Source of the DNA: Candidatus Ozemobacteraceae bacterium
Lineage (GTDB): Bacteria > Muiribacteriota > Ozemobacteria > Ozemobacterales > Ozemobacteraceae
Assembly (NCBI GenBank): GCA_035388825.1
Contig: DAOOQQ010000016.1
Span: forward strand, 12,334-76,333
DNA length: 64,000 nucleotides
Reading direction: 5' to 3'
Shown here: piece after piece, positions 48,376 through 62,849 of the stretch
Layout of the letters: every line of letters starts with the position of its first letter
Position numbering within the stretch: position 1 is the first letter of the stretch
The notes under the pieces: generated by a model
The model's database searches: none
Told to the model about the DNA's origin: nothing
The model's input: the letters and a program-made list of their open reading frames with translations, nothing else
Position numbers and translations under genes: made by a program

Positions 48376-48938
48376 AGGAGGGAGACGTGAAAGCGCTCAT
48401 CATCGCCGACGTCGACGATCTCAAATGGCGTGGCGGAAGCGGCAAGGCGGATATCGTCATCTCGTGCGGGGATACGGCGGAGTGCCTGGTCCTGGAAGCG
48501 GCACGAGCGTTCATGTGCGACTGCATCGTGGCGGTGAAAGGGAACCACGACCCAGATACCCCGTTCATGCCGCCGGTAGTCGATCTGCATCTCGCCGTGC
48601 GGGAGTTCGGCGGGCTGAGATTCGCCGGGTTCGGCGGGGCATGGCGGTACAAGCCACGCGGGCTTCATCTCTACGAACAGGATGAAGTCGAGGCCGAACT
48701 TGCGAAACTGCCGCCCGTGGACATTCTCGTCTGCCACAACTCCCCTCTTGGGGTTCACGACAGACCTGACGGCATTCACACAGGTTTTTCAGGGCTCAAC
48801 ACGTATATCCGGCAGTCCCGGCCCCGGCTTCTGATTCACGGTCACCAGCACCAGAACATCGAGACGCTCGTCGACACGACCCGCGTCATCGGCGTCTACG
48901 GCCATCGCCTGCTCGATCTGCCCAGCGTATTGCCATGA
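48372..48938 (+). CDS. Calcineurin-like metallophosphoesterase
   Basis: …DIVISCGD…, VKGNHD and LIHGHQH metal-ligand motifs. Start overlaps the AAA2 stop (ATGA). Confidence 0.7.
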   Translation: MKEGDVKALIIADVDDLKWRGGSGKADIVISCGDTAECLVLEAARAFMCDCIVAVKGNHDPDTPFMPPVVDLHLAVREFGGLRFAGFGGAWRYKPRGLHLYEQDEVEAELAKLPPVDILVCHNSPLGVHDRPDGIHTGFSGLNTYIRQSRPRLLIHGHQHQNIETLVDTTRVIGVYGHRLLDLPSVLP

Positions 48939-48955
48939 ACAAAAGGATGAGCTGA

Positions 48956-49459
48956 ATGGAATTCAAACATACGATCGATGCCATTGCGAAGAAGACACCG
49001 AGAGAAGAAGCCGATGCTCGTCGAGCAGGTCTTCTTCGACTGGATGAGCCTGCGAGAGGGGCGGAGGTCGGGCTCTGGTGGTTGATCGAAAACAACATCT
49101 TTCGTCTGGCCCAGCCATGGTCCCAAGCACCTGAGGAGGACGGCTGGCACATGATCGAGGACATCCATGACCATGCCTGGGCTGACATGAAAGCCGCTTT
49201 GGCGTCGAGGTTTCCTTCGATCATTCACCTCAGATACAACGACCCCGAACGAGGTCGGGTCTGGTATCGCCCTCGAGAGAATACTTTCTTCATTACCTGC
49301 TCCAAGCTCATCAAAGCTGAACAAGCCATCATTCGTACAATCATGGAGAAGTTCGGGATAACCGCAAAGGCCGTCCGTGTCGTGAATGACCCACAGTATG
49401 ACGTTCGTCCGTTGCCATTGCAGGACAGGAATACACCGAATGAAATTCCACGCATTTGA
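48956..49459 (+). CDS. Hypothetical protein
   Basis: ORF 18 nt after the phosphoesterase gene. No recognisable domain. Confidence 0.4.
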   Translation: MEFKHTIDAIAKKTPREEADARRAGLLRLDEPARGAEVGLWWLIENNIFRLAQPWSQAPEEDGWHMIEDIHDHAWADMKAALASRFPSIIHLRYNDPERGRVWYRPRENTFFITCSKLIKAEQAIIRTIMEKFGITAKAVRVVNDPQYDVRPLPLQDRNTPNEIPRI

Positions 49460-49743
49460 ATGGAGAAGTATATATGCCTGGGTTTATAGATGATCTCAGA
49501 ATTCTCGTCAGGCAATGCCTTGCCTGCGACGGCAGGGATCGGTTCGTTCGGTCTCTTGGATACAGAAACATTTCGAAGGGGCTTCGCCGGATCGATGCGT
49601 TTCTCTGCGGCGGAGAACCGGCGCAGGATCGTCTCGACCGGCTGGCGCATATTCTCGGCCTGGATCCGGCTGACGTCGTATGCAAAGCACCAACGCTATC
49701 ACTGGCCCACATGGGGTGCCTCAAACCCGGGGGAATATTATGA
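49456..49743 (+). CDS. Hypothetical protein; N-terminal module (RSLGYRNISKGLRRIDAFLCG…DRLAHILGLDP) paralogous to the N-terminus of ORF 63392-63985
   Basis: Shared R-x-LGYRN-x-x-KG-x-RRI-x-x-FL-x-G…L-x-L-x-P motif between the two ORFs. Confidence 0.4.
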   Translation: MNGEVYMPGFIDDLRILVRQCLACDGRDRFVRSLGYRNISKGLRRIDAFLCGGEPAQDRLDRLAHILGLDPADVVCKAPTLSLAHMGCLKPGGIL

Positions 49744-50372
49744 TGATTCCAATACAGTATTCAGATCCAAGCGATTCGAAGACGTCCTTTCATATTGTTA
49801 CTCATATTCAAGCCAGTGAAATCAAGTATTTCACCGATAAGCGTTTTGGAGAGTGCTTTTGGTCGAATGATGTAAAGGCACCGAAAGAAGAACAATGCCA
49901 GGAATATATGATGCGGTTGTTTTCTTTGGCAAGCCTTCCTCCAGAATCGAAATTCACTTCAGCTTTCATAAAATCACCATGCTTTTCTTGTGAGCATTGT
50001 TGGGAATATGGATCTATATCCTTATTTTTGGAATTAGAAAGGATAAGAGAATCAACAATCGTCTTCAATGGCGATGTGAAGAATTTGGCTTTCAAGATTT
50101 TCGGCCAGAATTGCTCACCGAAAAAGTATTTGAGATTTCATTCCCTTGACATCCCAGCATTTCACATGTTGGTCCATCTTCAAAGATACTATTGGAATTA
50201 CATGGCTCATGCGATGTTCAAAAAGCCGTTTTTCCCTCGAATGGTTGGAAGCTATTTCGAAGTAAGGATTTTGCGGCCGATTACCAGGAAGGACATAAGC
50301 ATGATTGTAATTCCGATGGATCTTGATAAAGCCTCGGTTAAAAGGGTCGAAGAATTGGCTAACTCAGATTGA
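49740..50372 (+). CDS. Hypothetical protein (AT-rich gene)
   Basis: ORF only. Low GC. Confidence 0.35.
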   Translation: MMIPIQYSDPSDSKTSFHIVTHIQASEIKYFTDKRFGECFWSNDVKAPKEEQCQEYMMRLFSLASLPPESKFTSAFIKSPCFSCEHCWEYGSISLFLELERIRESTIVFNGDVKNLAFKIFGQNCSPKKYLRFHSLDIPAFHMLVHLQRYYWNYMAHAMFKKPFFPRMVGSYFEVRILRPITRKDISMIVIPMDLDKASVKRVEELANSD

Positions 50373-50424
50373 AGAACGCCCTGACAAATGATTCGACAAG
50401 GTAATTATCAAAAGGAGGTCTCGA

Positions 50425-50838
50425 ATGAGTGTTCTTCTCCTCGAAGACAACGAGTCAAGAATCAGGCGCTTCGAGAAACTCGGGCTGAACGTGCTTGTCT
50501 GCCGTAATGCATTCGAGGCGATCGCCAGGTTGTATACGCATCGCGATACGATACGCCTCATCTCCCTCGATCATGATCTGACGCCGCGCGAGAACGCCTG
50601 TGGCTCGCTCGGAATCGCCTGCGCCTGTCATGTCGTCGACCTTCTTTGTGTCATGCCGACCTTCTGCCCGGTGATGATCCACACATCGAACGAACAGGCC
50701 GCGGCCTTGATGAAACACCGCCTCGTCAGTTGCGGCTGGCCCGTCATCTGGGTGAAAACGGATGCACCCTTTCCCGACGACTGGATCGAAACTCTCTGGA
50801 AGGAAGCCGTACGTTCCGCCGGGCTCATGCCTTCATGA
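50425..50838 (+). CDS. Small stand-alone CheY-like (receiver-fold) protein with conserved Cys cluster, paralog A
   Basis: LLLEDNESRI…LISLDHDL…CGSLGIACACHVVD…FCPVMIHTSNE…WPVIWVKTD…PDDWI. Acidic, Asp, Thr/Ser and Lys sit at the canonical receiver positions. GGAGG RBS. Confidence 0.55.
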   Translation: MSVLLLEDNESRIRRFEKLGLNVLVCRNAFEAIARLYTHRDTIRLISLDHDLTPRENACGSLGIACACHVVDLLCVMPTFCPVMIHTSNEQAAALMKHRLVSCGWPVIWVKTDAPFPDDWIETLWKEAVRSAGLMPS

Positions 50839-50868
50839 TCTCGAGATATCGACGATCGAGGTGAGCAG

Positions 50869-51342
50869 ATGATCGAACATCTGGATAGAGTGACAGCAGG
50901 CGAAGCCATTCTCCATTTGTGGATCACCTGTCTTCGAAGTCGTGTCGAGCCGAAGCTGGCGTTCATCGAGATCGATGAGGGTGTGATCCGGTGCCGCCCC
51001 AAAACGCTGGATAAATGCCGATTCTTCAAGGAGTATCTTCTTCCCTTCGAAGCCGGAAGCCCACCGGAAGCGGGATTGGATATCGTCACCACCTCGACGG
51101 CTCGGCTTCAACGCGGCGTTCTTTTCTATCATCTTCGACGGAAGGAACTTCTTCTCCTCCTCCCCTGCCGGGAGATGGCGAATCCGGTATTGATGTTCGC
51201 TGTTCTCCGAGAATTGGGCCTTGATTCGCTGCCGGTGGGATTCGCCAGGCGAAGAAAGGACGGCAGAATCCGACGCATTCCAAATCTGAGAGTTCTCTAC
51301 AGATTTCTCCGTCTTCACCCTGATATTCAGATATATGTCTGA
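50869..51342 (+). CDS. Hypothetical protein (partner gene downstream of REC-like paralog A)
   Basis: ORF only. Confidence 0.35.
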   Translation: MIEHLDRVTAGEAILHLWITCLRSRVEPKLAFIEIDEGVIRCRPKTLDKCRFFKEYLLPFEAGSPPEAGLDIVTTSTARLQRGVLFYHLRRKELLLLLPCREMANPVLMFAVLRELGLDSLPVGFARRRKDGRIRRIPNLRVLYRFLRLHPDIQIYV

Positions 51343-51443
51343 TCGCTCGTCATCTCCTGCGTTCGTATGAAATCGCCGACGGCACCCGGGGTGAAACATG
51401 TTTGTTTCTATTTATGTCGGTATAGATAAGAAAGAGGTCTCAC

Positions 51444-51878
51444 ATGAAAATTCTGGTTCTCGAAGACGACCCATTTCGGATTTCGATCATGAAAGCCCTT
51501 CTGAAGAAAGAGCGAATTCCATTCTCGATCTGTCCGGACCCCATCGATTTCCTCGTGGAACTGACCTTCAAATCTGCCGAAACGACGATCATCTCCCTGG
51601 ACCATGATCTGTCACGCATCGTACGACCGTGCGGCATCTACAGCTTCGATTGCGGCTGCGCCGTGGTCAGGTTCATGAGCCGGATGAAACCTGTTTGCCC
51701 CGTCCTGGTCCATTCCCGGAACGATCAAGAACGGCTGAGGATGATCGAAGATCTGACCGGCGCCGGATGGCTCGCTCAGCCCGTCATCGAAGACCCGACG
51801 AATGAAACCAACTGGGTCGAAAGCGCATGGATCGAGGCAATTCGTACAATGCACAAGAATGGGGAAAATAACCCCTAA
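51444..51878 (+). CDS. Small stand-alone CheY-like protein with Cys cluster, paralog B
   Basis: ILVLEDDPFRI…IISLDHDL…CGIYSFDCGCAVV…VCPVLVHSRND… Same motif positions as paralogs A and C. Confidence 0.55.
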   Translation: MKILVLEDDPFRISIMKALLKKERIPFSICPDPIDFLVELTFKSAETTIISLDHDLSRIVRPCGIYSFDCGCAVVRFMSRMKPVCPVLVHSRNDQERLRMIEDLTGAGWLAQPVIEDPTNETNWVESAWIEAIRTMHKNGENNP

Positions 51879-51896
51879 CCAACCGCGTGAGAATGC

Positions 51897-51925
51897 TTGA
51901 CATATAGAAACCATTTCTATATATT
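51897..51925 (+). promoter_or_regulatory. Sigma-70-like promoter TTGACA, 17-bp spacer, TATATT, with palindromic operator (TATAGAAA-cca-TTTCTATA) in the spacer; the ATG at 51932 suggests a leaderless transcript
   Basis: Hexamers, 17-bp spacer and 8-bp inverted-repeat arms seen directly. A second copy lies at about 54836-54864. Confidence 0.55.
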
Positions 51926-51931
51926 AGTTTT

Positions 51932-52156
51932 ATGACTACCAAGCAGCGCTTCCGGAACAAATACCGCCTCGAGATCCGCGAGCGGGACCACAATCCGGCG
52001 CATGCGCATCTTTTCGGCGGCGGTGTCGATGTGGTCATCGATCTGATCACTCTCGAGACGTCGGGCGACTGCCCCCGCGATCTCCTGGACGAGGTCGTCG
52101 GGTATGTGAGGGCGCACCGCGATGAACTGATGGAGGAGTGGAAAAAATGGCACTGA
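51932..52156 (+). CDS. DUF4160-family small protein
   Basis: …NPAHAHLF… matches the DUF4160 signature (HNPPHFH-like). Overlaps the downstream DUF2442 gene. Confidence 0.55.
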   Translation: MTTKQRFRNKYRLEIRERDHNPAHAHLFGGGVDVVIDLITLETSGDCPRDLLDEVVGYVRAHRDELMEEWKKWH

Positions 52157-52670
52157 TGAAACGGCCAAGACTGACGGCCATCAAGGCGATGCCGAATTTC
52201 AAAATGCGCCTGACTTTCCTGAACGGGGCAACCTACGTCGTCGACTTTCTTCCGCTTTTCGAGGAATCGAAAGGGCTTGCCCCTTTGCGCAATCAGAAGG
52301 CATTCGCCGACGCCATGATGGACGAATGGGGCTGGGAGATCGAATGGCCGGCGTTCGACATTCAGATCGGCGCCGACACCCTCTGGATGGACGCTCAGGC
52401 GCAGGCCGCGAAAGATCCCGCGACCCGCGACTTCATCATGTGGCGGGCGAGGAACGGCCTTTCCCTTGCCGACGCAGCCCGGGCCCTTGGCATCACGTCG
52501 CGAACCGTCTCGGCCTACGGCACGGGCGAAAGGCCGGTCCCGCTCTACATCACCCTTGCCTGCAAAGGCTGGGAGGCCGAACGCCAGCCCGGACACAAAA
52601 AAGCGGCCTGATTACAAATCAGGTCGGGTTGTCGTTCGCCGATATCGTATGCAATCCAGAGACATCAAGA
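52077..52670 (+). repeat. Direct repeat copy 1 (3' end of DUF4160 gene plus complete DUF2442-HTH gene), about 98% identical to 58008-58600 over the coding part
   Basis: Hand alignment: identical 157-aa ORFs. 3' flanks are homologous but diverged. Confidence 0.7.
52138..52611 (+). CDS. DUF2442 domain protein fused to XRE-like HTH (copy 1)
   Basis: …PRLTAIKAMPNFKMRLTFLNGATYVVDF… is the DUF2442 pattern. C-terminal LSLADAARALGITSRTVSAY is an HTH. The 157-aa protein is identical to copy 2 at 58068-58541. Confidence 0.55.
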   Translation: MEKMALMKRPRLTAIKAMPNFKMRLTFLNGATYVVDFLPLFEESKGLAPLRNQKAFADAMMDEWGWEIEWPAFDIQIGADTLWMDAQAQAAKDPATRDFIMWRARNGLSLADAARALGITSRTVSAYGTGERPVPLYITLACKGWEAERQPGHKKAA

Positions 52671-52921
52671 AAACTCTCTGTATGAACAGCCTGGCGACCA
52701 CTTGGTCCGACCGACCTCGTTTTAAAAACCTGAATTTGAAGTAATCCGTCCAATATGATACGGTTTCGAGGTCAACGTCTCTACGCGCCGTTGATGTTGA
52801 CGGATTCCTTCGGAACATATGGACGAATCAATGGAATACGCAGTTTACTAGATCAAGGCCCGTGCGCGGCCCCCAATTACTGCTGGAACGCCTTGTTGGG
52901 TATAATATATAGGAGTATATT

Positions 52922-54664
52922 ATGGCTTCACAGTTACTAAAAGAAGTTCTCATTTCCGCGAAAAAGTGTGATCTTTTGCTTCCTGATTTTCAGCGAGATT
53001 TTGTGTGGAAGCCACCCGCAGTGATCAAGCTCATTTGCTCAATATTAAACAAGTATCCAATCGGGGGACTGCTCTTCATGGAGACCGAAGGGGATTATCA
53101 GACAAGGCCCCTTGATGGTATCCCCCCAAGAGACGAAAATGAAAATCAGCCACCCATCAAGACACTAATCTTAGACGGTCAACAAAGATTAACTTCATGC
53201 TATAAAGCGTTCTTCGGAGAAATGAAGGATGCGCGCTACCCCGGCCGCTACTTCTTTGACTATAAAAAGTATGTTCTTTCTCCAAATGTGACAGGTAGCG
53301 AAATTGAAGATTATATTGTATTTCGAAAAAGGAACGAGGTTCAAGCACAACTTTCTCAGACAGCCGCAGAACAAACCGCGGGATTGTTTCCATTGGATAT
53401 CATTTTCGACAAACCTCGCGGAACGGACTACACCCAATGGCTCGCGGGTTTCAATTTTTCTGCGGCTGGTAACGACCCCGAAAAATATGCCCATTTAACA
53501 TCTATAACAGCATCCTTTCAAAGAATAATTGAGAATGTAACCTCCTATCAACTTCAGTTTGAAGCAATTCCTCGTGCGACCAGCCCAGAAGTAATATGCA
53601 CGGTATTCGAGACAATAAACACAACCGGTAAACGATTAACTGTTTTTGATCTACTTGTTGCACGATGTTTTCCAAAACAGATAAAGCTCAGAGAAATGCT
53701 CATCAAAGCCGTCGATGATCCCGTCATAAGAAGGTTTGACGATGACGAGGGAGAAGAACTTTGCACAATTGCTCTGCCAAGAATCATTTCATTAATGCAT
53801 AAGAATTCTGCAAAGCGGGGTGACTTGTTAACACTTGAACCTGAGGTAATTGGTCAAAGATGGGATGAGGCAGTGTCTGCTCTTAGGAAAAGCCTCGAGC
53901 TTGTATGGAAGGTTTTTGGTTCAATTGGCCTTCGATTTGTTCCGCTCCCAGACATGATTCCCCCGATAGCTGTTATTTTAAGCCATCCGAAGTTCGATCA
54001 ATCCAATCCAGAAAACCAGAACATGCTTAAGAAATGGTATTGGAGGTGTGTGTTTTCACAGTATTTTAGCAGTTCTTCGGATACAAAAGCGGCTCGAACC
54101 GTAAAAGAATGGACCGATTCAAATGAAGGCTGGCTCTTTGAAAGCAAGAATATTCCTGAGGTGGTCAAGAACTTTTCATTAAGCAAATATGTTTTATCAG
54201 ATGTTGCACGAAGTGATAATGCAATATACCGAGGAGTTATGAGTTTACTCATTGCAAATGGCGCAGAGGATTTTGGCCCTTCAAGGACAAAGATTGTCGA
54301 TTTACTACCTGGAGAGGTCGATGACCACCACATTTATCCGGTAAGGTTCCTCGAGCCTTCTGGTATTCGCGGAAACACAGTCAATTTTATCGCCAATAGA
54401 ACCCCATTATATAAACTAACAAATCAAAACATCGGAAACGACGCCCCGTGTGTGTATTTACAAGATGCTAACAGGGTATCTACTGAAGTAAGGAAAATGC
54501 TTCCTTCACATGGTATTCCTGAAATTATTTTCAAGGAATTTACGAAGGAGCAATATGAAAGATTTACACGAGATCGGGCATCGACGCTTCTTGAGATGAT
54601 AAAAAAGGCGGTTGAAGTGAACGAAATTGACGAGAGCCCAACAGGCGGTTCGAGCGGAAACTGA
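52922..54664 (+). CDS. GmrSD-family Type IV (modification-dependent) restriction endonuclease (DUF262/ParB-like plus DUF1524/His-Me finger)
   Basis: N-terminal LLPDFQRDFVW…LDGQQRLT DUF262 motifs. C-terminal …VDDHHIYPV… DUF1524 motif. Low-GC gene. Confidence 0.7.
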   Translation: MASQLLKEVLISAKKCDLLLPDFQRDFVWKPPAVIKLICSILNKYPIGGLLFMETEGDYQTRPLDGIPPRDENENQPPIKTLILDGQQRLTSCYKAFFGEMKDARYPGRYFFDYKKYVLSPNVTGSEIEDYIVFRKRNEVQAQLSQTAAEQTAGLFPLDIIFDKPRGTDYTQWLAGFNFSAAGNDPEKYAHLTSITASFQRIIENVTSYQLQFEAIPRATSPEVICTVFETINTTGKRLTVFDLLVARCFPKQIKLREMLIKAVDDPVIRRFDDDEGEELCTIALPRIISLMHKNSAKRGDLLTLEPEVIGQRWDEAVSALRKSLELVWKVFGSIGLRFVPLPDMIPPIAVILSHPKFDQSNPENQNMLKKWYWRCVFSQYFSSSSDTKAARTVKEWTDSNEGWLFESKNIPEVVKNFSLSKYVLSDVARSDNAIYRGVMSLLIANGAEDFGPSRTKIVDLLPGEVDDHHIYPVRFLEPSGIRGNTVNFIANRTPLYKLTNQNIGNDAPCVYLQDANRVSTEVRKMLPSHGIPEIIFKEFTKEQYERFTRDRASTLLEMIKKAVEVNEIDESPTGGSSGN

Positions 54665-54866
54665 ACGCCGGCCAGCGGTCTTGCATACGCCAGGCATGGG
54701 CTAATCCTTCAATTCAGCTCAACCGTGTTGCTCGAAGTCGAATGGAGGTTTGAATGCGTGGGCGTCCATATTTTTCCAGCCTCCTTCAAAGCCGCGCAGG
54801 AGCATCTCGCAAGTATGGGTTTCGAGAATGTTTGACATATAGAAACTATTTCTATATATTCGTTTT

Positions 54867-54968
54867 ATGACCACCAAGCACCGCTTCCGGAACAAATACC
54901 GCCTCGAGATCCGCGAGCGGGACCACAATCCGGCGCATGCGCATCTTTTCCGCGCAGGAAATCCATGA
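54867..54968 (+). pseudogene. Truncated DUF4160 gene (first about 28 codons conserved, then diverges to a stop at codon 34) with its own promoter/operator copy upstream (about 54836-54864)
   Basis: About 117 bp (54829-54945) is about 93% identical to 51890-52005. Confidence 0.6.
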
Positions 54969-55326
54969 CCTGAGAAAGTACAATCCGCCCCTCGTTCATG
55001 TTTACACCCTCCACCAATTATCGGGTGGGGGCAAACAGCCGGGAGAATCACCTCGGTTGAAATCGAAAAATCACTTCATCCTCGAAATTACCTACATTCA
55101 TCATGGTTTTCGAGAATTCTCAAATTGATATATTTTGAAAGGAGTTCATTTGTGTCCCTTTCTTCAATGTGGAATGACCAACCTGATCAGCTTGCCGACA
55201 AACAAATTCAACAAATCATTAGCTTTGCGGGCGAGGGAAAGCTGGCTGACGACTCTGCAACCTCAAAAGAGTTTAGAGACTTCCTTCAGTTGGTTACCTC
55301 GGACTTCCTGAATAAATACGTTAATG

Positions 55327-56228
55327 AACCTATCCCAGAAATATGATTGACCGTTGTACTTTCGGATCCTTGACGGTACCATCTTGGCATGGAGGTGATA
55401 CCATGCCAGGAAAATTCATTGGTCTTTCCAACTGCCAATGGGAATTGTTGAGTTCCCTCTTGCCACCCGAGCCGGAAGTCCGCTGGAAAGGGCAGCCTCC
55501 AGCCCCCTTTCGACCAATTCTTAACACTATATTCTACGTCCTGATTACTGGGTGCCGGTGGTGTGATGTCCCGGTGGGACCCAAGTGGGGAAAGCGAACC
55601 ACCTCTCATCGGTGGCTGGGAGCCTGGCTTTCTGATGGAACCTTGAAGAAAATGAAAGCCCGCCTTCTTGGCGCCGCCCATCTGGCGGGAAAGATCGACT
55701 GGAGCAACGGATCTATCGATGGGTCTTTTGCGGCAGGAAAGGGAGGCGGAGAGGGCGTTGATTACGGATTCAAGGGGAAAGGAGTTCTGACCCACGCCTT
55801 GGTAGATGGCAACGGATTGCCTTTGGCCGTGACTTCCACCGGGGCTTCGGGCAACGAACGAGAGCAGGTTGAACCTCTCTTGGACGCAGTTGCGCTGGAA
55901 ACGGGAAAAAAGGGGCGTCAGAAGAAGCGCCCTCGGTCCCTGGAGCTCGATAAAGGTTACGACGCCAGGGATCTGCGGAAAAAAAATCCGGGGTCGAGGA
56001 ATTCTCCCAAAGATTCCCCGACGAAGATGGAAAAAGGGAAAACAGCCCAGGGGGCGCAAGTTGGGAAAGCTGGAAAATCGTTGGAAGGTTGAAAGGAATT
56101 TCGCATGGTTGCAAAGAAAATTTCGGCGACTCTCTACCCGCTGGGAGAGACGCTGGAAATTCTGGGAAGGCTTCTTGATGCTGTCTATATGCATAACATG
56201 GGTTAATGTATTACTGGGATAGGTTCAT
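55327..56228 (+). mobile_element. IS5-family (IS427/IS1031-group) insertion sequence, about 0.9 kb, terminal inverted repeats GAACCTATCCCAGWAATA
   Basis: Inverted repeats found by hand at both ends. Transposase in two overlapping frames. Confidence 0.7.
55403..56222 (+). CDS. IS5-family transposase (two overlapping frames, 55403-56092 and 55869-56222; probable programmed frameshift)
   Basis: …CQWELLSSLLPPEP…ILNTIFYVLITGCRWCDVP… and C-terminal …KLENRWKVERNFAWLQRKFRRLSTRWERRWKFWEGFL…, IS5/IS427 hallmarks. Confidence 0.75.
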
Positions 56229-56737
56229 GAATGCCTCGAAGAAAAATTTGCGAATAGTGATTTTGCGCTTCAGGATATTGTTAATGAAATAGGTCGGCGC
56301 CTTGGATTTACCGTTGAAAATGGCCGTTACCATGGAAAAAAGAACGACATTGGTCACGACGGGCTTTGGATTCTCAACAACGAAAGCTCACTTATCCTAG
56401 AGGTCAAGACCACTGATGCATACCGAATTGATTTGGACCGGATTGCAGAGTATCGAACAAAGCTTGTCGAAGGAAAAAGAGTTTCCGAAAAGGCTTCTTC
56501 CATATTAATTGTTGTTGGACGCCAGGACACGGGTGATCTTGAAGCTCAGATAAGAGGCTCTCGGCATGCGTGGGACATCCGCCTGATAAGCGCAGAAGCA
56601 CTGCTTCGGTTAGTTGAGTTAAAAGAGAATCTGGACGACCCCACTGTTTCAACAAGAATTTCCGGCATTCTGATCCCTCGGGAGTATACGCGTGTTGACG
56701 CAATTATTGACCTTGTCTTCCAGCTTCGGAAGACGCC

Positions 56738-57175
56738 TTGATAGACGAAAAACAAACCCCGGAAGACGAGAAAGAGGATGAAAAGCAACCTGGACATGGA
56801 ATACTTGCAAACTTCAACCAGAATTTGGCCAATTTAATCCAAGAAAAACTGAAGACTCCTCTAATCAAAATCGCGAGAGCAATGTTTTCTTCTCCCAATG
56901 GCGACACAGTTGCCGTATGTAAGGCTTCCAAGGAGCACAGTCCTGACGAAAACCCAAATTACTGGTTTGGATTTTATGTCTTTCAGCACGAGATTCTCTC
57001 AAAGGCCGAGAAAGGCTATATTGTATTTGGATGCGGCAGCCCAAAGCAGACGCTTCTAATACCTTACAAGGAGTTTTCCAATCTTCATGGAGGAATGCAT
57101 AAGACAAATGACAAGAAGCCATATTGGCATGTTGTAATTTATCGGAATGGAGATTCGTTTATTCTCCATCGGTAG
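56738..57175 (+). CDS. Hypothetical protein (Glu/Lys-rich N-terminus; start overlaps the upstream stop, possibly a second domain of the nuclease-like gene)
   Basis: ORF only. ATGA overlap with 56741. Confidence 0.35.
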   Translation: MIDEKQTPEDEKEDEKQPGHGILANFNQNLANLIQEKLKTPLIKIARAMFSSPNGDTVAVCKASKEHSPDENPNYWFGFYVFQHEILSKAEKGYIVFGCGSPKQTLLIPYKEFSNLHGGMHKTNDKKPYWHVVIYRNGDSFILHR

Positions 57176-57421
57176 AAAAACGAGGAAAAGACCGATTTGT
57201 CCAAATACCTAATCATATAACATGCGTGTTGAGCGGAACGCCGATACTGGCCACGGGGCTTGCGTGCGCAAGTCCCGCGCCCAAAGCGCCCCGGGCCCCT
57301 CGCTTCGCCGTTGGCTACGCCCGGCGCCTGCTCAAGCGCGGCGTTCGGCAATGAGAAAATAGGCAACCCACCAAGTCTCAATTGCTCGATTAGATCCGTG
57401 TATCGTGACAGGAAAAAATCA

Positions 57422-57985
57422 ATGAAATTCTATTACTTACACATCCCTAAGTATCGTTATGGTTCATACTTGCAATTGTTCTCCAATGAGAAGGAGTGCT
57501 TCTCTTTCGATCTTTCCAATGAGGCTTCCGGAAAGATAAATTTCAAAGTTGATAGGCAAAAGTTTACCATTGAAAAATTAGGATATGGTGATTTTGAAAT
57601 TTCTAAGGATGAAGTCGATGATGTCGAGCATGAGCTTAAACTCGACAATTGTTTTAAGAACATTTCGAAAGACATTTCAAAATATTTTGTAAAAGAGAAG
57701 AGAAGCAGTAATCAAGAAATAATTAACTATATTATGATTTCTGGCAGGTTGCGATGCAAAAAGATGCCTTCCATTGGGTTTTCAGAAATCACTTTGGTTG
57801 ATTTCAACGGATTTTCCGTAAATGGACGTATTGTTGCCTATTTTAAAACAGATTCCTTGGACGAGCTTGGGATTACAATTGCAATCGACAGCGACATACA
57901 TCCTTGGATTTGTTTCTGCTCCGAAAATGTTAAAATTTCGAGGAACAAGATTTGTCGAACAAAGCGTTCCAGCGGACAGCAGTGA
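57422..57985 (+). CDS. Hypothetical protein (AT-rich)
   Basis: ORF only. Very low GC. Confidence 0.35.
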   Translation: MKFYYLHIPKYRYGSYLQLFSNEKECFSFDLSNEASGKINFKVDRQKFTIEKLGYGDFEISKDEVDDVEHELKLDNCFKNISKDISKYFVKEKRSSNQEIINYIMISGRLRCKKMPSIGFSEITLVDFNGFSVNGRIVAYFKTDSLDELGITIAIDSDIHPWICFCSENVKISRNKICRTKRSSGQQ

Positions 57986-58007
57986 AAAATTAATATGTAG
58001 AACAGTG

Positions 58008-58600
58008 CGATCTTCTGGACGAGGTTGTCGGGTATGTGAGGGCGCACCGCGATGAACTGCTGGAGGTGTGGAAAAAATGGCACTGATGAAACGGCCAAGA
58101 CTGACGGCCATCAAGGCGATGCCGAATTTCAAAATGCGCCTGACTTTCCTGAACGGGGCAACCTACGTCGTCGACTTTCTTCCGCTTTTCGAGGAATCGA
58201 AAGGGCTTGCCCCTTTGCGCAATCAGAAGGCATTCGCCGACGCCATGATGGACGAATGGGGCTGGGAGATCGAATGGCCGGCGTTCGACATTCAGATCGG
58301 CGCCGACACCCTCTGGATGGACGCTCAGGCGCAGGCCGCGAAAGATCCCGCGACCCGCGACTTCATCATGTGGCGGGCGAGGAACGGCCTTTCCCTTGCC
58401 GACGCAGCCCGGGCCCTTGGCATCACGTCGCGAACCGTCTCGGCCTACGGCACGGGCGAAAGGCCGGTCCCGCTCTACATCACCCTTGCCTGCAAAGGCT
58501 GGGAGGCCGAACGCCAGCCAGGACACAAAAAAGCGGCCTGATTACATATCAGCCTGGGCCGTCGTTTACCGGCATCGTATGCAAAGCCGTGTCAGAGGCG
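58008..58600 (+). repeat. Direct repeat copy 2 (3' fragment of DUF4160 gene plus complete DUF2442-HTH gene)
   Basis: Aligned by hand to 52077-52670. Confidence 0.7.
58068..58541 (+). CDS. DUF2442 domain protein fused to XRE-like HTH (copy 2, identical protein to 52138-52611)
   Basis: Identical 157-aa translation in the ORF track. Confidence 0.55.
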   Translation: MEKMALMKRPRLTAIKAMPNFKMRLTFLNGATYVVDFLPLFEESKGLAPLRNQKAFADAMMDEWGWEIEWPAFDIQIGADTLWMDAQAQAAKDPATRDFIMWRARNGLSLADAARALGITSRTVSAYGTGERPVPLYITLACKGWEAERQPGHKKAA

Positions 58601-58721
58601 AAAATCTCTGCATCAACAGCTTGATGACCACTCATGCCATCCAAACCTCATCGAACGCCGCAGACAAGCGGAACTTTGGGCCGTGCGCCGGCCTTGATTC
58701 AACAAGGCCCCTGAACGGCTT

Positions 58722-59969
58722 TCAATTTCCGCTCGAATCGCTGGTTAGCTGTTTCTTTTTCGAGTTTACCCTTGTAATTACCTGGATGACACCCTGGGTA
58801 GTTTGCTTTTCTCCAGATATTGCATCAGCAGACTGTTTCTCGAATTCGGCAGAATTAAAGTCCCCGCCGATCTGGTCAATAATCTCTGCATAAATTGCCT
58901 GACACAAGTGAGGGAAGAATGACTCCTCATTTTTCTTTTCCACAAAATTCTCCAGATCGTTATCTTCGCCAAATTGTCGTTGCTCGCCGAGATTCTTCTT
59001 TGCATTGTTTACGAGGTTGATTACCTGGCAATATGGATTCTTCTCATCCTGGAAGAACTTCTTCTCGAAACCATTCAGGACGGAAACGATCTTTTCATTC
59101 AAAAAAGTATCCCGATACCCAGCCTGAACACGAAGATGGTTCCTGGGCCGGGCTACAATGCTGATTGATGAATCAAAAGCGAATGTATCGTCTTCTTCGC
59201 GAAACAATCGGACTTTCAAGACGCCAATTCCATTGTCATTGGCAAAGTCAATTGCGTCCTCATCAAGTTCGGTTTCTCGCTCCTCAAATACATCAAAAAC
59301 AACCAGCCATTTTTCATTTGCCCAGCTTCCATTGATTGCAGTTTCCGCCAGCGCAGAGAGTAGTTCTCCGCGAATCAACGGGCCGCACTTCAATTCAATT
59401 GATGACAGAACCCAGTTGGGGAGGTTGTCAACCGACTGAATTAATCTGCCTATTTCTGGATTCGCAAAAGCTTTTTTAAATTCATTCTCGCGAACCATTA
59501 TCATATCAGGATTTGCCCACTTTTGATTCGATTGCTTGGGCGGAAGCGACAGAACTTTAGCCTCAAATTTCCTTTCCAATACTATTGAAGCTGGCAGATG
59601 CAAGAACGCTTCCCAGTTTTCCCGTTCTTCTTGATTCGTTTGTTCAGAAGGTTTCTTTCCTCTTTTCAGTTTTCCATCCTTGCCTTCCCCCTCAGTTATG
59701 GAAACTCTGCTTTCGGCAATCTCGGAAAGTAACTGGTATCCCTTTTTTGGCCCAGGGTGGTGGAGTGTTCTACCTACGGCCCTTTTTAAATAGTTAATGA
59801 GATTTGTTTCAACTTGTAAATCCGACAATTCATCGGTGGTAATGCTGACTTCATTGAAAGACCTTGTGACAAGGTCAGCGATTTGGCCCGCTGAAAGATT
59901 TGAGGTCATTTTCAAAGCGAGAAGCTTCTCCAACTTTTCTTGAAGTCCCGGAAATTTCGCTTTGCTCAT
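58722..59969 (-). CDS. Hypothetical protein (415 aa, AT-rich)
   Basis: ORF only. No confident domain. Confidence 0.4.
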   Translation of the reverse strand: MSKAKFPGLQEKLEKLLALKMTSNLSAGQIADLVTRSFNEVSITTDELSDLQVETNLINYLKRAVGRTLHHPGPKKGYQLLSEIAESRVSITEGEGKDGKLKRGKKPSEQTNQEERENWEAFLHLPASIVLERKFEAKVLSLPPKQSNQKWANPDMIMVRENEFKKAFANPEIGRLIQSVDNLPNWVLSSIELKCGPLIRGELLSALAETAINGSWANEKWLVVFDVFEERETELDEDAIDFANDNGIGVLKVRLFREEDDTFAFDSSISIVARPRNHLRVQAGYRDTFLNEKIVSVLNGFEKKFFQDEKNPYCQVINLVNNAKKNLGEQRQFGEDNDLENFVEKKNEESFFPHLCQAIYAEIIDQIGGDFNSAEFEKQSADAISGEKQTTQGVIQVITRVNSKKKQLTSDSSGN

Positions 59970-60085
59970 AAAAACTCCTTAACTGTTTTTGACAGCTATG
60001 TGCGCATTCCTATAAATCCGCCCATCTGCTCCGAATGAATTCGTCCGACCTTTCGGAGCAAAGCCGCACGCCTCACGACACGAAA

Positions 60086-62251
60086 TTATTTTCTGATCCC
60101 TGGAGAGCTTAAGAACGCGATCATGCTCATATTGATGATGTCGGATCGAATATTCGGCTCGATGATTTCGCTCACATCGATTTTCGCATCGGGTCTTGGA
60201 AAGAGCTCTACAGCGGCCGCGGCAATCTCGAAAAGGTCGTCGCTCATGCCGGGTTGTGGGCAGGTGAACCAGATGATGGCGTATGCGGCTTCGGAGAGGA
60301 TTGGTTCACTGCGAATCTTTTCGAGAAGAAGGTTGCGGGTTCCAGACCATCGGAAAATGCGGAATGATGGATAGTTTCGCAATGCCGCGAACAGCTTTCC
60401 CGGATCGAGCGTCGAAACGATTTCCTCCCCCCAGCCACCTGGGAGAAGGCCATCGGCGCCCGGCAGGCGACCTCCGGCCGGTTCAGGCATCATGCAGAGA
60501 TGTGTCTCACACCCGGTTTTAGAAATCGTTTTGAATCGGGGTGGCCCTTCGAGTATGCGCATGATGACGAACGACGCAGATGGAATTCCGAACGCCTTCT
60601 TAATCTCGGCGGCCATCTTCCAGTTCCAGGTGATGTCTTCCGAGATGTCCACCGTGAAACAGGCTTTTTCGAGATCGTATCGAACGACACCGCGCGGAAT
60701 ATCCAGGGCCGTGTTCGTTTCGAGCTCGGGGAACCGGGAGATCATCGCCGGCCAGAAATCAGAGAACACGAGTTTCGATGTGAGATACTTCCCGATCGTT
60801 TTCCCGCGTCGCAGACTCGAGGAAAAGGGAATGACCTTGTTTTCGTGAATCCAGAACAGCCCCAGGCGAGGCGACCGCTTCCGTCGGGAAAGGCGGTTCA
60901 GGCGACGCTCGATTCGCGCCCATGCGCAATCGTCGAACGGCCATTTCTCGATCTTCGGCTGATACCGTTTCAACGCTTCTTCTCGCAGAACACCAGGTGT
61001 TTCGGATTCCCAGAGTTCATCGAGAAAGCCGGGAAATCGTTCATTGAACTCGGCAATGGACCTCTCAACATTCAGCAAGCCTTCCGGCAGTCTTTCGGTT
61101 TCGGGTCGATCTATCGATCGGATGGCATCGTCAAGAATCACGGCGCAGTCATCATCAAAGGCGTGGCGCATGATCGCCTCGATATATGCGGGGCCCCCGG
61201 CTTCCTTCAGCCGCCCGGTTTGGCGCAGGCGGTCGATGACCTTGTCATACAGGAGCCACTCCTTTCGGGCGTGCATTTCCACCATCTGCCCGAACAGCGT
61301 CTTGTGCTCGGGAATCATGAATCGTTCCGGCGTGAGTTTCGAAAACACCTTCTCCTTCAGCTCCGACAGATGCCCGCCGTCGGAGAGCAGCACTCCGAGC
61401 AGGAGAGCCTCCTCCTCCCGTGGCGGAGTCCGAATCTCCTCCGGGCAAGCGGTATCGAAGAAAAAGATCCCGTCACATTCGATAACATCTGCAGCATCAC
61501 CGGCATAGACGCCCATGCCGACGTCAAGCTCGACAGAGTCATCATCTAAATACCTTACGATATCTTTGCAGAACTCATCGGCGCGAGGTTGCAATTCCCG
61601 TTCCGAAAAGTGCAGGAATACGGATCCGGAAGAAGCCTTTCTATAGTTACAATGACACTTCATCGAATGAAGATCGGCGTATCGCCCCGTCCAGGTGATG
61701 ACCTTATACGCAGGATATGATTCAAGTTTCTTCAGCAGACGTTCATGGGAGAATCTGAAGATTTCCTCAGACGCGCGTCGCATGGTGAAACCGTTGTTTC
61801 TCCCCTTTTTCACGGTGAGCCTCGGCGTTTCGATGGTTCGCAGCCGGGGAATGACGACAGATCGTGCCGGGATATGGAATCGCCGCCTGATCACAGCGAT
61901 CAGCGCCCTGTTCGAAAGAATTTCGGCCGGTGCGACGATCTCGAATGCCCCGTTCACCAGCTCAAAGGTGACGTAGCCGTCGCACATCCCCTGCCCCTCT
62001 TGCCGGCGAAGCTCCGGGAAACGCTGAATCACCCTTCTCTGGTGCTCCGCGAGAGAGTTCATGGCGAGCAGCCAGATGTGATCCTGCTCCGTTTTGTCGA
62101 GGCTGACGGTCTGGATGAAGATGTTCCCCCGATACACGACGAAATGCCCGAGCCGGGGCATCGGCGTCAGGGAGAGCAGGAACTTCAGCCGCTTTTCGAT
62201 ACGGTCCCATTGTTTCTCGTCGTGGAGCCAATCATGCCGGTAGAGTTTCAT
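60086..62251 (-). CDS. Large hypothetical protein with an internally duplicated about 130-aa module flanking a DnaB-helicase-N-terminal-like domain
   Basis: Residues about 1-130 and about 440-570 align (KLYRHDWLHDEKQWDRIEKRLKFL…PRLGHFVVY vs KRYQPKIEKWPFDDCAWARIERRLNRL…PRLGLFWIH). The central EALLLGVLLSDGGHLSELKEKVFSKLTPERFMIPEHKTLFGQMVEMHARKEWLLYDKVIDRLRQTGRLKEAGGPAYIEAI resembles DnaB_N. Confidence 0.45.
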   Translation of the reverse strand: MKLYRHDWLHDEKQWDRIEKRLKFLLSLTPMPRLGHFVVYRGNIFIQTVSLDKTEQDHIWLLAMNSLAEHQRRVIQRFPELRRQEGQGMCDGYVTFELVNGAFEIVAPAEILSNRALIAVIRRRFHIPARSVVIPRLRTIETPRLTVKKGRNNGFTMRRASEEIFRFSHERLLKKLESYPAYKVITWTGRYADLHSMKCHCNYRKASSGSVFLHFSERELQPRADEFCKDIVRYLDDDSVELDVGMGVYAGDAADVIECDGIFFFDTACPEEIRTPPREEEALLLGVLLSDGGHLSELKEKVFSKLTPERFMIPEHKTLFGQMVEMHARKEWLLYDKVIDRLRQTGRLKEAGGPAYIEAIMRHAFDDDCAVILDDAIRSIDRPETERLPEGLLNVERSIAEFNERFPGFLDELWESETPGVLREEALKRYQPKIEKWPFDDCAWARIERRLNRLSRRKRSPRLGLFWIHENKVIPFSSSLRRGKTIGKYLTSKLVFSDFWPAMISRFPELETNTALDIPRGVVRYDLEKACFTVDISEDITWNWKMAAEIKKAFGIPSASFVIMRILEGPPRFKTISKTGCETHLCMMPEPAGGRLPGADGLLPGGWGEEIVSTLDPGKLFAALRNYPSFRIFRWSGTRNLLLEKIRSEPILSEAAYAIIWFTCPQPGMSDDLFEIAAAAVELFPRPDAKIDVSEIIEPNIRSDIINMSMIAFLSSPGIRK

Positions 62252-62322
62252 TCAGGCACCCTCCTTTCCATTATCTGCCGTGCGAGGAACTGGCGCGTCG
62301 ATACGGGCAGATGTGCGAATCA

Positions 62323-62832: not shown

Positions 62833-62849
62833 TCCGCTTCCCTTCCTTC

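Follow-up and report, generated by a model that had tools for sequence, protein, structure and literature searches.

In higBA toxin-antitoxin (TA) systems, the toxin gene comes first and an XRE-type HTH antitoxin acts on a palindromic operator that overlaps the promoter. Bacterial chromosomes also carry orphan antitoxins, some of which can neutralise a homologous toxin from another locus, a function known as anti-addiction; the ccd on the chromosome of Erwinia chrysanthemi is an example. Closer in domain content to the locus described here is DhiTA of Dickeya dadantii 3937, in which a DUF4160 gene is followed by an overlapping DUF2442 gene in one operon; the toxin is growth-inhibitory and is neutralised by the antitoxin, which also represses the promoter, although less strongly than the TA complex does (PMC8198452). 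The Persistence-Enhancing Module of Thermus thermophilus is likewise composed of a DUF4160 ORF (87 aa) and a downstream DUF2442 ORF (92 aa), a pair that stabilises its plasmid and whose first ORF is tolerated only in the presence of the second (PMC12724237). In addition, DUF4160 serves as an effector domain in the Menshen NsnC proteins (PMC12065111). Finally, NE0471 of Nitrosomonas europaea (PDB 2AUW) joins an N-terminal DUF2442 beta domain to a C-terminal HTH, and is a structural-genomics 'hypothetical protein' to which the depositors gave a molecule name without function.

The DUF4160/DUF2442-HTH module and its promoter

The 64,000 nucleotides analysed here, referred to as the window, contain two DhiTA-type cassettes: an intact one (copy 1, positions 51889-52702) and one whose toxin gene is broken (copy 2). 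The features of copy 1, together with the two promoters, are the following:

51897-51925, plus strand: promoter P1 of copy 1, with -35 TTGACA at 51897-51902 and -10 TATATT at 51920-51925
51932-52156, plus strand: intact DUF4160 toxin gene, 74 aa, DhiT superfamily (Pfam PF13711)
52147-52611, plus strand: antitoxin gene of copy 1, DUF2442 plus XRE-type HTH, 154 aa (Pfam DUF2442, HTH_31)
52612-52702, plus strand: 3' flank of copy 1, 71% identical to the 3' flank of copy 2 at 58542-58632
54832-54860, plus strand: promoter P2 of copy 2, with -35 at 54832-54837, palindrome at 54838-54856 and -10 at 54855-54860

The two genes of copy 1 are co-directional, with the toxin first, and overlap by 10 nt, the Shine-Dalgarno sequence of the antitoxin being embedded in the last toxin codons; among 80 genome loci encoding the antitoxin, 75 have DUF4160 directly upstream. 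The toxin matches PF13711 (DUF4160) over residues 17-71 (34.6 bits, gathering threshold 23, E 2e-8). With the NCBIfam model toxin_DhiT (NF048015) it scores 31.7 bits, under the 100-bit equivalog cut-off, so that on profile evidence it belongs to the DhiT superfamily, yet is no equivalog of the Dickeya DhiT. Its structure model reaches a pLDDT of 96, and the fold matched no known enzymatic homologue; ten residues are invariant, among them D19, H20, P22, H24 and H26. As for the antitoxin, the start is at ATG 52147, with an in-frame GTG at 52138, and 645 homologues begin at MA.MKRPRL. The protein matches PF10387 (DUF2442) over residues 14-85 (36 bits, threshold 23.9) as well as HTH_31, and in its structure model a five-helix domain comes after a beta domain. 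Moreover, its profile aligns over both domains with PDB 2AUW, positions 6-147 corresponding to chain residues 8-146 (E 2e-28).

These matches place the family within the known DhiTA type II TA superfamily, in a subfamily with an XRE-type HTH antitoxin (NE0471, PDB 2AUW). The NE0471 family can be placed here as putative antitoxins and repressors that pair with a DhiT-like toxin. The sequence-only reading from which this analysis started had assigned DUF4160/DUF2442 pairs an unknown role, a view superseded by the experimental validation of the superfamily (PMC8198452, PMC12724237). The module shares family content, gene order, overlap and single-operon arrangement with DhiTA but, unlike it, encodes an antitoxin with a C-terminal XRE-type HTH, which matches no DhiA-like NCBIfam model. 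The Thermus antitoxin is also unlike that of the window, being too short for an HTH domain, and the Thermus pair is plasmid-borne, whereas the window module is chromosomal, duplicated and partly decayed. With higBA, the module has in common the reversed gene order, the XRE-type HTH antitoxin and a palindrome overlapping the promoter; unlike in higBA, the toxin fold is unrelated and the operon is predicted to be leaderless, its transcripts starting at the toxin ATG. By analogy with distant relatives, the HTH-fused subfamily would be expected to show toxicity, neutralisation and operator binding.

In P1, the 17-nt spacer between TTGACA and TATATT contains the palindrome TATAGAAA-CCA-TTTCTATA (51903-51921), the right arm of which runs into the -10. 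The -10 and the toxin ATG are separated by 6 nt, and the mRNA is therefore predicted to be leaderless. Within 51.7-58.8 kb, no site other than P1 and P2 reaches an 11-of-12 sigma-70 match, and no third site in the whole 64-kb window resembles the palindrome at two mismatches or fewer. The same layout is found in related loci, namely TTGAC, then TATAGAAA-N3-TTTCTATA with the right arm over the -10 hexamer TAnnAT, and the palindrome (called at no more than 3 mismatches over 16 positions) is kept in 108 of 151 related loci as opposed to none of 252 control zones. The family-wide logo reproduces the arrangement of P1, with GAAA and TTTC cores of 1.5-2.0 bits despite their position in a promoter spacer and with information-free bases between the -10 and the ATG; at the one variable position of the arms, no compensatory co-variation is seen. 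Of 101 unique sequences, 70 have the ATG at exactly 6 nt past the -10. This conserved layout supports a model of a leaderless, operator-controlled operon, as the sequence-only reading had proposed for the duplicated promoter with its spacer palindrome. Conservation of a putative operator between -35 and -10, the HTH domain of the antitoxin and the published autoregulation of DhiTA suggest that the antitoxin autoregulates through the palindrome (PMC8198452). The putative palindromic operator and the predicted leaderless start are features of the window module on which the DhiTA paper is silent (PMC8198452).

The split second copy

Self-BLAST of the window returns two repeat pairs, 51889-52019 with 54824-54954 (131 nt, 95.4% identity, E 2e-54) and 52077-52702 with 58007-58632 (626 nt, 94.9% identity, E 0), and a repeat search finds the same two. 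The copies are direct repeats 5,930 bp apart, and copy 2 consists of two fragments, collinear and non-overlapping, which are jointly short of only 57 of 723 nt. Specifically, toxin nucleotides 52020-52076 have no counterpart in the split copy, which instead carries 3,052 nt. The features of copy 2 are the following:

54824-54954, plus strand: 5' fragment, 43 nt of promoter (P2) and toxin codons 1-29
54955-58006, plus strand: replacement DNA, 3,052 nt, GC about 0.43 outside the insertion sequence, supplanting 57 nt of the toxin gene
55152-57175, plus strand: pseudogene of a family of about 390 aa, from homologue alignment
55326-56226, plus strand: insertion sequence of the IS5 family, 901 nt long; its terminal inverted repeats are GAACCTATCCCAG, its target duplication the 2-bp AT
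57422-57985, plus strand: AT-rich ORF, 187 aa, called in five assemblies
58007-58086, plus strand: 3' toxin remnant, codons 49-74, start codon absent
58077-58541 (ORF from 58068), plus strand: intact antitoxin gene of copy 2, protein identical to that of copy 1
58542-58632, plus strand: 3' flank of copy 2, 71% identical to 52612-52702

The 5' toxin ORF (54867-54968) stops after 33 codons, and the 3' remnant corresponds to the predicted C-terminal helix only; the two pieces diverge from copy 1 by 4.6% and 6.6%, respectively. At least five independent metagenome assemblies carry identical junctions: both are crossed at 100% identity in L003 (ERZ27257431) and L190 (SRR4244858), the left one is covered by L004 and L005, and the right one by L191, L192 and L193. 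This recurrence rules out an assembly artefact as the source of the repeat. The sequence-only reading had rightly described one full and one split module and a premature stop in the split toxin, although its fragment coordinates were off by a few bases and its figure of 93% for the 5' fragment is corrected to 95.4%. It had also spoken of 3 kb of inserted DNA. Foreign DNA it is, but a clean insertion is ruled out by the 57 nt lost and by junctions devoid of target duplication; neither target duplication nor terminal inverted repeats are found for 54955-58006.

The replacement DNA holds one gene broken twice, by the insertion sequence and by a frameshift, and the 187-aa ORF, which has no family match in Pfam, PADLOC or NCBIfam. 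The broken gene survives as three pieces (55152-55325, 56229-56741 and 56738-57175), the first two parted by the insertion sequence and one AT copy, the third reached via a frameshift near 56725-56745. Removal of 901 nt and one AT restores the frame, giving KYVNECL where a homologue has KYANECL. The family counts 3,179 homologues of about 390 aa without a precomputed Pfam domain, and the C-terminal piece aligns with residues 238-365 of one of them (P0216). A '145-aa ORF', one of two AT-rich ORFs previously listed, is accordingly no separate gene but this frameshifted C-terminus; the 187-aa ORF stands. Similarly, disruption of a gene by an IS5 element is borne out, whereas its 'nuclease-like' nature is not: the gene has no Pfam, NCBIfam or PDB sequence match and one marginal PADLOC match (E 0.0024), and the PD-(D/E)xK identity has in its favour only a D...EVK motif noticed by eye. 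The insertion sequence, present once in the 64-kb window, has the DDE transposase, terminal inverted repeats (23 nt, 91% complementary) and short target duplication of the IS5 family; its transposase is spread over two frames and matches NF033580 (115.3 bits, cut-off 110), DUF4096 and DDE_Tnp_1.

The reading that we favour, which we hold as a whole to be highly probable, is that of two direct-repeat DhiTA-type cassettes, the toxin of copy 2 having been replaced, with gene conversion between the copies and putative autoregulation. Each cassette extends from the sigma-70 promoter through the antitoxin stop codon. The DUF2442-HTH antitoxin would occupy the palindrome as a dimer, either by itself or together with the toxin acting as co-repressor, and block RNA polymerase. 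In copy 2, illegitimate recombination swapped 57 nt of the toxin gene for 3,052 nt of foreign DNA; upstream of this DNA remain P2 and 29 toxin codons, and downstream of it the final 26 codons with an intact antitoxin gene. The resulting genome would possess a single toxin gene but two each of antitoxin genes and operators, and the surplus antitoxin may buffer the remaining toxin, as an anti-addiction function or a stage of decay. Unlike ccd-type orphans, this antitoxin gene lies 5.9 kb from an intact copy, to which gene conversion keeps it similar. Since all ORFs from P2 through antitoxin copy 2 are on the plus strand and no plus-strand terminator-like site is predicted between them, P2 probably drives a single autoregulated unit that spans the insert genes and, 3 kb and an insertion sequence further on, antitoxin copy 2.

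Exchange between the copies and the alternatives

Mismatches between the copies are very unevenly spread: the 192 nt of promoter and toxin pieces hold 10, the 474 nt of antitoxin ORF hold 1, and the first 91 nt of 3' flank hold 26 (Fisher p = 3e-5 and 2e-21); a hairpin lies across the copy-1 stop codon (52604-52626). The antitoxin ORFs (52138/52147-52611 and 58068/58077-58541) differ by a single synonymous base (52590 C/A), and their proteins, identical as previously claimed, are both deposited at NCBI within one MAG (HOY66622.1 and HOY66628.1). A sister-strain contig equals the window across 13.3 kb except for 13 SNPs, all in the copy-1 antitoxin gene. In L002, L178 and L179 the 13 SNPs fall within 52215-52431 (clustering p ~4e-22), and at every one of these sites copy 1 of the window has the copy-2 base. 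Three contigs from three samples (L181-L183) have in common the private SNP 52029T and switch alleles at a different point; they end within the repeat, and their mosaic could stem from a single-module genome or a chimeric path. L193 bears copy-1 bases at 58060 and 58067 amid an otherwise copy-2 context, and even in the 'unconverted' haplotype, stretches of 77 and 158 nt free of SNPs adjoin a tract diverged by 6%. These haplotypes directly support repeated exchange between the copies through gene conversion, in both directions, which explains the identical antitoxin ORFs of the window assembly and upholds the gene conversion earlier proposed from an identical ORF with diverged flanks.

Toxin decay next to an intact antitoxin gene is typical of the family: the toxin gene is partial or absent in 27 of 151 related loci (~18%), all picked for encoding the antitoxin, a sampling to which loci with a toxin and no antitoxin are invisible. 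In particular, 5'-truncated toxins starting near codon 45-54 recur in other genomes without a nearby 5' fragment. This recurrence, the absence of target duplication and the missing 57 nt would fit the idea that each fragment stems from a module copy of its own, or that the promoter was duplicated separately. We give this idea very little credence, as the fragments have the same orientation, the right order and no overlap, the toxin parts diverge alike from copy 1, and the 64-kb window has no third antitoxin gene or other module remnant. Hardly more probable is a small autoregulated transcription-factor operon without TA function, its first gene a harmless accessory lost by neutral drift. A toxin well under the DhiT equivalog cut-off and lacking a known enzymatic homologue of its fold would suit such an operon, but the Pfam families, order and overlap are shared with two independently validated TA pairs, the ten invariant residues suggest that the protein has an active site or some specific interface, DUF4160 is an effector domain in NsnC (PMC12065111), and one-sided decay is expected if only the toxin is harmful, the reverse being invisible in this sample.

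It is quite unlikely that the identity of the antitoxin ORFs reflects the collapse by the assembler of paralogous bubbles about 6% apart, the duplication itself being real in either case. The window haplotype comes from short-read metagenome assemblies, where de Bruijn bubble collapse of 6%-diverged paralogues could mimic a conversion tract; moreover, the fully identical haplotype is found only in ERZ761564 NODE_281 and an NCBI TPA MAG contig of comparable length, two sequences that may derive from the same reads, while three other assemblies retain the 13 SNPs in copy 1. However, the window retains copy-specific bases to either side of the tract, at 52084-52137 and at 52590, a pattern unexpected for simple collapse. 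In addition, L193, from another sample and assembler, is a reciprocal mosaic within unique copy-2 context that as an artefact would take two path switches via only 33 nt of identity, and the private SNP and different switch point of L181-L183 as well as the SNP-free tracts of the 'unconverted' haplotype speak for conversion. A further proposal, which adds a claim of origin compatible with the favoured reading and is unlikely, is that homologous recombination at the module brought in or removes the 5.93-kb segment, with its GmrSD gene, P2, broken gene and 187-aa ORF, in one piece. Circular or other foreign DNA with a module diverged by about 5% would have entered by a single crossover within the chromosomal module, generating two hybrid direct repeats between which recombination can delete the segment again, the TA module acting as a portable homology anchor for defence genes. 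One contig (L088, JGI 3300010356) does run from the left flank through 5' alleles of copy 1 into 3' alleles and the 3' flank of copy 2, and on to the 415-aa gene; this haplotype has a single module, lacks the 5.93 kb and switches between 52138 and 52214. Likewise in favour are the low GC of the segment relative to the module and to positions 1-49000, the homology to modules of other species, bounded exactly by the -35 and the stop codon with none beyond, the module pairs at two unrelated loci, L165 (bracketing 5.8 kb of conflict-type genes) and L035 (in tandem, only ~0.6 kb between copies), and module relatives on plasmids and viral contigs. Nevertheless, L088 is no evidence of arrival, because repeat-repeat deletion yields the same product, and it may be a chimeric path via a 452-nt exact repeat, its sample also having the insert (L192). 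No integrase, replication gene, circular-junction contig or DNA match to plasmids was found, and the 71% identical 3' flanks fit an old local duplication at least equally well.

The segment between the copies

Upstream of P2, the segment between the module copies carries one further gene:

52922-54664, plus strand: GmrSD/DUF262-type gene, 580 aa, GC 0.44 (Pfam GmrSD_N)

GmrSD-type type IV restriction enzymes combine an N-terminal DUF262 (GmrSD_N) with a C-terminal DUF1524 His-Me nuclease domain. The 580-aa protein matches GmrSD_N (E 6e-27) and the PADLOC models HEC-05 and PDC-M55C (~1e-23), the alignment to HEC-05 covering residues 6-566; a DDHHIYP motif is visible in its translation, and its C-terminal domain has no Pfam match at E <= 0.01. 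The GC content is 0.43-0.44 in the segment between the copies, 0.59 in the module and 0.60 over positions 1-49000. The host is a Candidatus Ozemobacteraceae from anaerobic digesters, and the locus lies within a low-GC defence/conflict island.

A duplicated module of the DhiTA superfamily

The sequence-only reading, which described one full DUF4160/DUF2442-HTH module and a second copy split by inserted DNA, proved accurate, as self-BLAST and a repeat search of the window both recover two direct repeats: 51889-52019 matches 54824-54954 (131 nt, 95.4% identity, six mismatches) and 52077-52702 matches 58007-58632 (626 nt, 94.9% identity). The feature is real, and most of it is already covered by existing knowledge; apart from both repeats, these searches found no module-like sequence in the 64 kb. 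Copy 2 lacks 57 nt of the toxin gene (52020-52076) and carries 3,052 nt (54955-58006) in their place. The genes and elements concerned are the following:

51932-52156, toxin gene of copy 1, DUF4160
52147-52611, antitoxin gene of copy 1, DUF2442 plus XRE-type HTH
55152-57175, gene disrupted by an insertion sequence (IS), within copy 2
55326-56226, the IS5-family element, 901 nt, transposase NF033580 at 115 bits
57422-57985, 187-aa ORF, the only other ORF in the insert

A profile built from 29 homologues of the antitoxin finds PDB 2AUW (NE0471) over both domains (E 2e-28), and in the AlphaFold model of the antitoxin a beta domain precedes a five-helix domain. On the NCBIfam DhiT equivalog model the window toxin reaches 31.7 bits, against a cut-off of 100, and is thus a distant member of the superfamily and not a DhiT orthologue. 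The window module adds a new member to the DhiTA superfamily, within the HTH-fused, NE0471-like subfamily. It shares with DhiTA of Dickeya dadantii, a type II toxin-antitoxin (TA) system of the DUF4160/DUF2442 type, the toxin-first order of two overlapping genes (PMC8198452). The DhiTA toxin is growth-inhibitory in both Dickeya and E. coli and is neutralised by the antitoxin, which represses the DhiTA promoter by ~50%, the complex doing so more strongly (PMC8198452). In addition, a homologous pair stabilises Thermus plasmids, its first ORF being tolerated only with the second (PMC12724237), and DUF4160 serves as an effector domain in Menshen NsnC (PMC12065111). The NE0471 family, with a solved but unannotated structure, is now interpretable as the repressor-antitoxin that partners a DhiT-like toxin.

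Across the stop codon of the copy-1 antitoxin gene lies a 10-bp hairpin (52604-52626, CGGCCTGATT-ACA-AATCAGGTCG) followed by a T-poor tail, which may be a terminator or an mRNA-stabilising element and whose copy-2 counterpart is weaker. An Rfam scan of 51.5-59.0 kb for RNA families returned only a chance snoRNA match (E 0.1).

The DNA inserted in copy 2 has a GC content of about 0.43, versus 0.59 for the module. Its IS5-family element, present once in the window, is bounded by inverted repeats GAACCTATCCCAG and by a 2-bp target duplication (AT), and its removal restores an ORF with the junction KYVNECL, compared with KYANECL in a homologue. The '145-aa ORF' at 56738-57175, previously counted as a separate gene, does not stand as such, since it aligns to residues 238-365 of an about 390-aa homologue. 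From the restored junction and this C-terminal alignment, the IS-disrupted gene and the '145-aa ORF' are one gene, broken by the IS and by a frameshift. Its 3,179 homologues at E <= 0.001 (represented in our set by proteins P0216-P0335) are about 390 aa long, occur in many phyla, show about 60% identity over the N-terminal 222 aa and contain no Pfam domain. The family has a D...EVK motif, visible in the broken gene, and a conserved block 'VVGRQDTGDLEAQIRGSRHAWDIRLIS'; for an assignment as a nuclease, Pfam, NCBIfam and PDB sequence searches gave no match and PADLOC a marginal one (E 0.0024). The 187-aa ORF and the 415-aa gene neighbouring copy 2 have no match in Pfam, NCBIfam or PADLOC.

The ends of the insert show neither a target duplication nor terminal repeats, and the insert therefore arrived via illegitimate recombination, with loss of the 57 nt. 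A plasmid origin of the segment 52612-58006 was considered and rejected, the segment matching no plasmid at the DNA level. A 120-nt GC-rich patch (57234-57353) with 8-bp complementary ends, GAACGCCG and CGGCGTTC, stands out in the AT-rich DNA that separates the pseudogene from the 187-aa ORF; as a candidate structured element or repeat it was set aside, since it occurs nowhere else in the window, its folding z-score is only -1.8 and it has no Rfam match.

Exchange between the copies in natural haplotypes

The same DNA has been assembled independently from several anaerobic-digester metagenomes, the organism being Candidatus Ozemobacteraceae by source annotation, and the repeat is therefore not an assembly artefact. 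Specifically, both junctions of the insert are spanned at 100% identity by contigs L003 (ERZ27257431, k141) and L190 (SRR4244858), the side from the GmrSD gene to P2, the promoter of copy 2, is covered by L004 (NCBI GCA_029567375.1) and L005, and contigs from three JGI samples (L191, L192 and L193) cover the other junction, where the 187-aa ORF, the toxin remnant and the antitoxin follow one another.

The two copies differ unevenly along their length. Mismatches amount to 10 per 192 nt in the promoter and toxin pieces, to one synonymous change (52590) in the antitoxin ORFs (474 nt), and to 26 per 91 nt 3' of the antitoxin stop, with no similarity further out; these regimes are statistically distinct (Fisher p = 3e-5, 2e-21 and 1e-7). 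Purifying selection alone was rejected as the cause of the identical antitoxin ORFs, as a sister haplotype has 12 synonymous differences. That haplotype, H1, is represented by L002 (JGI 3300010355). Over 13,307 nt, this contig departs from the window at just 13 SNPs, which all fall between 52215 and 52431, inside the copy-1 antitoxin gene, and at each of which copy 1 of the window has the base of the window's copy 2. The chance of such clustering is about 4e-22, and H1 recurs in contigs from two other samples (L178 and L179). Compared with copy 2, H1 carries 12 synonymous and two non-synonymous changes (Q50H, M57V), and the divergence before conversion, 13/217 nt or 6%, is the same as that of the toxin pieces. 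In a second haplotype, H2 (L181-L183, three samples, with the private SNP 52029T in common), copy-2 alleles begin between 52231 and 52277. Finally, in haplotype H4, the stretch of contig L193 that lies between the unique insert and copy-2 bases carries copy-1 bases at 58060 and 58067, a mosaic that represents transfer the other way.

H1 itself contains two tracts, of 77 and 158 nt, that are free of SNPs and adjoin the 6% tract, and the neutral 3' flank is 29% diverged between the copies; from these two observations, the duplication is old and has been repeatedly homogenised. Alternatively, the window haplotype could have arisen by bubble collapse in one assembly, which we consider distinctly improbable, because copy-specific bases are kept on both sides of the tract and because L193 shows its own mosaic. 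The module has been caught duplicated and half-decayed, with population-level evidence of gene conversion. Several natural haplotypes of one uncultured population display conversion between TA paralogues in progress and in both directions, a process that, to our knowledge, is seldom visible in metagenomes.

A different arrangement is found in L088 (JGI 3300010356), in which the left flank and the copy-1 5' alleles are joined to the copy-2 3' alleles, the copy-2 3' flank and the 415-aa neighbour. In window coordinates, 51759-52137 is joined to 58145-59281, leaving one hybrid module without the 5.93-kb segment that separates the copies. L088 could reflect a real deletion, produced when one repeat recombined with the other, or an empty site ancestral to a Campbell-type integration, or else a chimeric path taken by the assembler; the same sample also contains the insert (L192). 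Direct-repeat module pairs occur in two unrelated genomes as well. At L165:870-8441 the copies have 895 nt in common at 97.4% identity and lie 6.7 kb apart, with a nonsense codon in one toxin and, between them, a ParS-like antitoxin, a WYL regulator and RtcB/Hen1; at L035:5702-7905 the copies are in tandem, at 92% identity. An unlikely proposal is that DhiTA-like cassettes provide defence genes with portable homology anchors and with regulatory front ends. The low-GC 5.93-kb segment, with its GmrSD gene and other cargo, would then be gained and lost via recombination between module copies, L088 being the empty site. The captured cargo would come under autoregulation of the TA kind, exerted through the orphan promoter/operator P2 and the antitoxin that was kept. 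As parallels, L165 flanks conflict genes and L035 shows pairing only. If the anchor proposal were true, module pairs around conflict genes would be a recurrent route to defence islands.

Operator-promoter, mobility and toxin decay across the family

Antitoxin homologues number 645, at about 60-67% identity, from Beta- and Gammaproteobacteria and Desulfobacterota, and 161 loci were collected for comparison. DUF4160 lies directly 5' of the antitoxin gene in 75/80 genome loci. The palindrome TATAGAAA-N3-TTTCTATA, scored at <=3 of 16 mismatches in the zone 5' of the toxin gene, is present in 108 of 151 testable loci and in none of 252 control zones. In the window, the palindromes of P1 (the copy-1 promoter) and P2 are the only sites with <=2 mismatches to it, and P1 and P2 are the only 11-of-12 sigma-70 matches within 7 kb.

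The logo of 101 unique promoter sequences gives the consensus TTGAc-N-TATaGAAA-tnA-TTTCTATA, with a family -35/-10 spacing of 17 nt; the right arm of the palindrome overlaps the -10 hexamer TAnnAT, and the GAAA and TTTC cores reach 1.5-2.0 bits despite their location in the promoter spacer. The start codon lies exactly 6 nt past the -10 in 70/101 sequences, and there is no Shine-Dalgarno sequence 5' of the toxin start in this logo, since the bases between the -10 and the start codon carry no information. There is strong comparative support for a predicted leaderless toxin transcript and for an operator that would overlap the RNA polymerase site. Compensatory co-variation of the palindrome was considered and dropped, because its sole variable arm position (A:T 49, G:T 22, A:C 18, G:C 4) does not co-vary. 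The very well conserved leaderless promoter of the subfamily, with its built-in palindromic operator, offers an operator sequence that is ready for testing.

Against the closest other modules (L006, L089 and L090), DNA homology begins at the -35 and stops at the stop codon, which defines the limits of the cassette. Its downstream neighbours are diverse, including type I restriction R subunits, other TAs, IS elements and conjugation genes; a fixed downstream partner was rejected, any one family occurring in <=6 of 114 loci. Relatives of the HTH-fused antitoxin are carried by 13 IMG/VR viral contigs (L194-L206), several of about 33 kb, and by 12 plasmids (listed as H1-H12), mostly sphingomonad, five of them predicted to be conjugative. 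The cassette is autonomous and mobile. A protein-based scan of metagenome contigs for more haplotypes gave distant relatives only, and a scan for exact 40-nt DNA matches, in a contig collection that does not include the source samples, gave none.

In the mechanism proposed here, a dimer of the antitoxin HTH would bind the palindrome and thereby block RNA polymerase, and the toxin, by analogy with DhiTA, would act as co-repressor. With the copy-2 toxin destroyed, the genome would retain a single toxin gene against two antitoxin genes and two operators, and the balance should move toward neutralisation, as an anti-addiction or decay stage. From P2 to the copy-2 antitoxin, all ORFs are + strand and the intervening DNA has no predicted + strand terminator-like site, so that P2 could plausibly drive the cargo and the copy-2 antitoxin as one autoregulated unit.

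Duplication, loss of the toxin and retention of the antitoxin are a textbook stage in the life cycle of a TA module. Among 151 loci with an antitoxin homologue, the toxin gene is full-length in 124, partial in 23 and undetectable in 4, the lesions comprising nonsense codons, frameshifts, internal deletions, 5' replacement and IS fusion; window copy 2 is one more case of this decay. In about 12/16 cases of 5' truncation or internal deletion, the 3' toxin remnant starts at codon 45-54 (L017, L037, L048, L050, L058, L092, L108, L049, L121, L038; in the window, 58007-58086, from codon 49), a clustering with a post hoc binomial p of about 7e-8. The starts fall where the predicted beta core gives way to the C-terminal helix. 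An internal antitoxin promoter in the toxin 3' end was rejected, as codons 49-66 show no synonymous constraint in 86 toxin genes; such constraint is confined there to codons 68, 71 and 72, the Shine-Dalgarno and start region.

Two individual loci deserve mention. At L017:2277-2800, an internal toxin deletion has joined the leaderless start codon, in frame, to the antitoxin, so that the operator-promoter directly drives an antitoxin with an N-terminal extension (MTTLPSCGG...MAKMASMKRPRL...). At L079:88-270, in another genome, the 3' end of a transposase-like ORF (MFSYISMNWRGRPLTSHE...) takes the place of the 5' part of the toxin gene, as if an IS had inactivated the toxin.

The surrounding island

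The module lies within a lower-GC, conflict-type island (43800-63400). This contains two paralogous AAA+ ATPase genes (45359-45833 versus 47647-48120, 68% identity), a metallophosphatase and the 415-aa gene without family, together with:

50425-50838, small cREC_REC (cyclic-phosphate receiver) protein
51444-51878, small cREC_REC protein
near 62.9-63.3 kb, minus strand, small cREC_REC protein (at least three in all)
60086-62251, minus strand, DnaB-like 721-aa gene

The inverted similarity between 50561-50804 and 62881-63124 (73%) gives the island a mirror-like arrangement.
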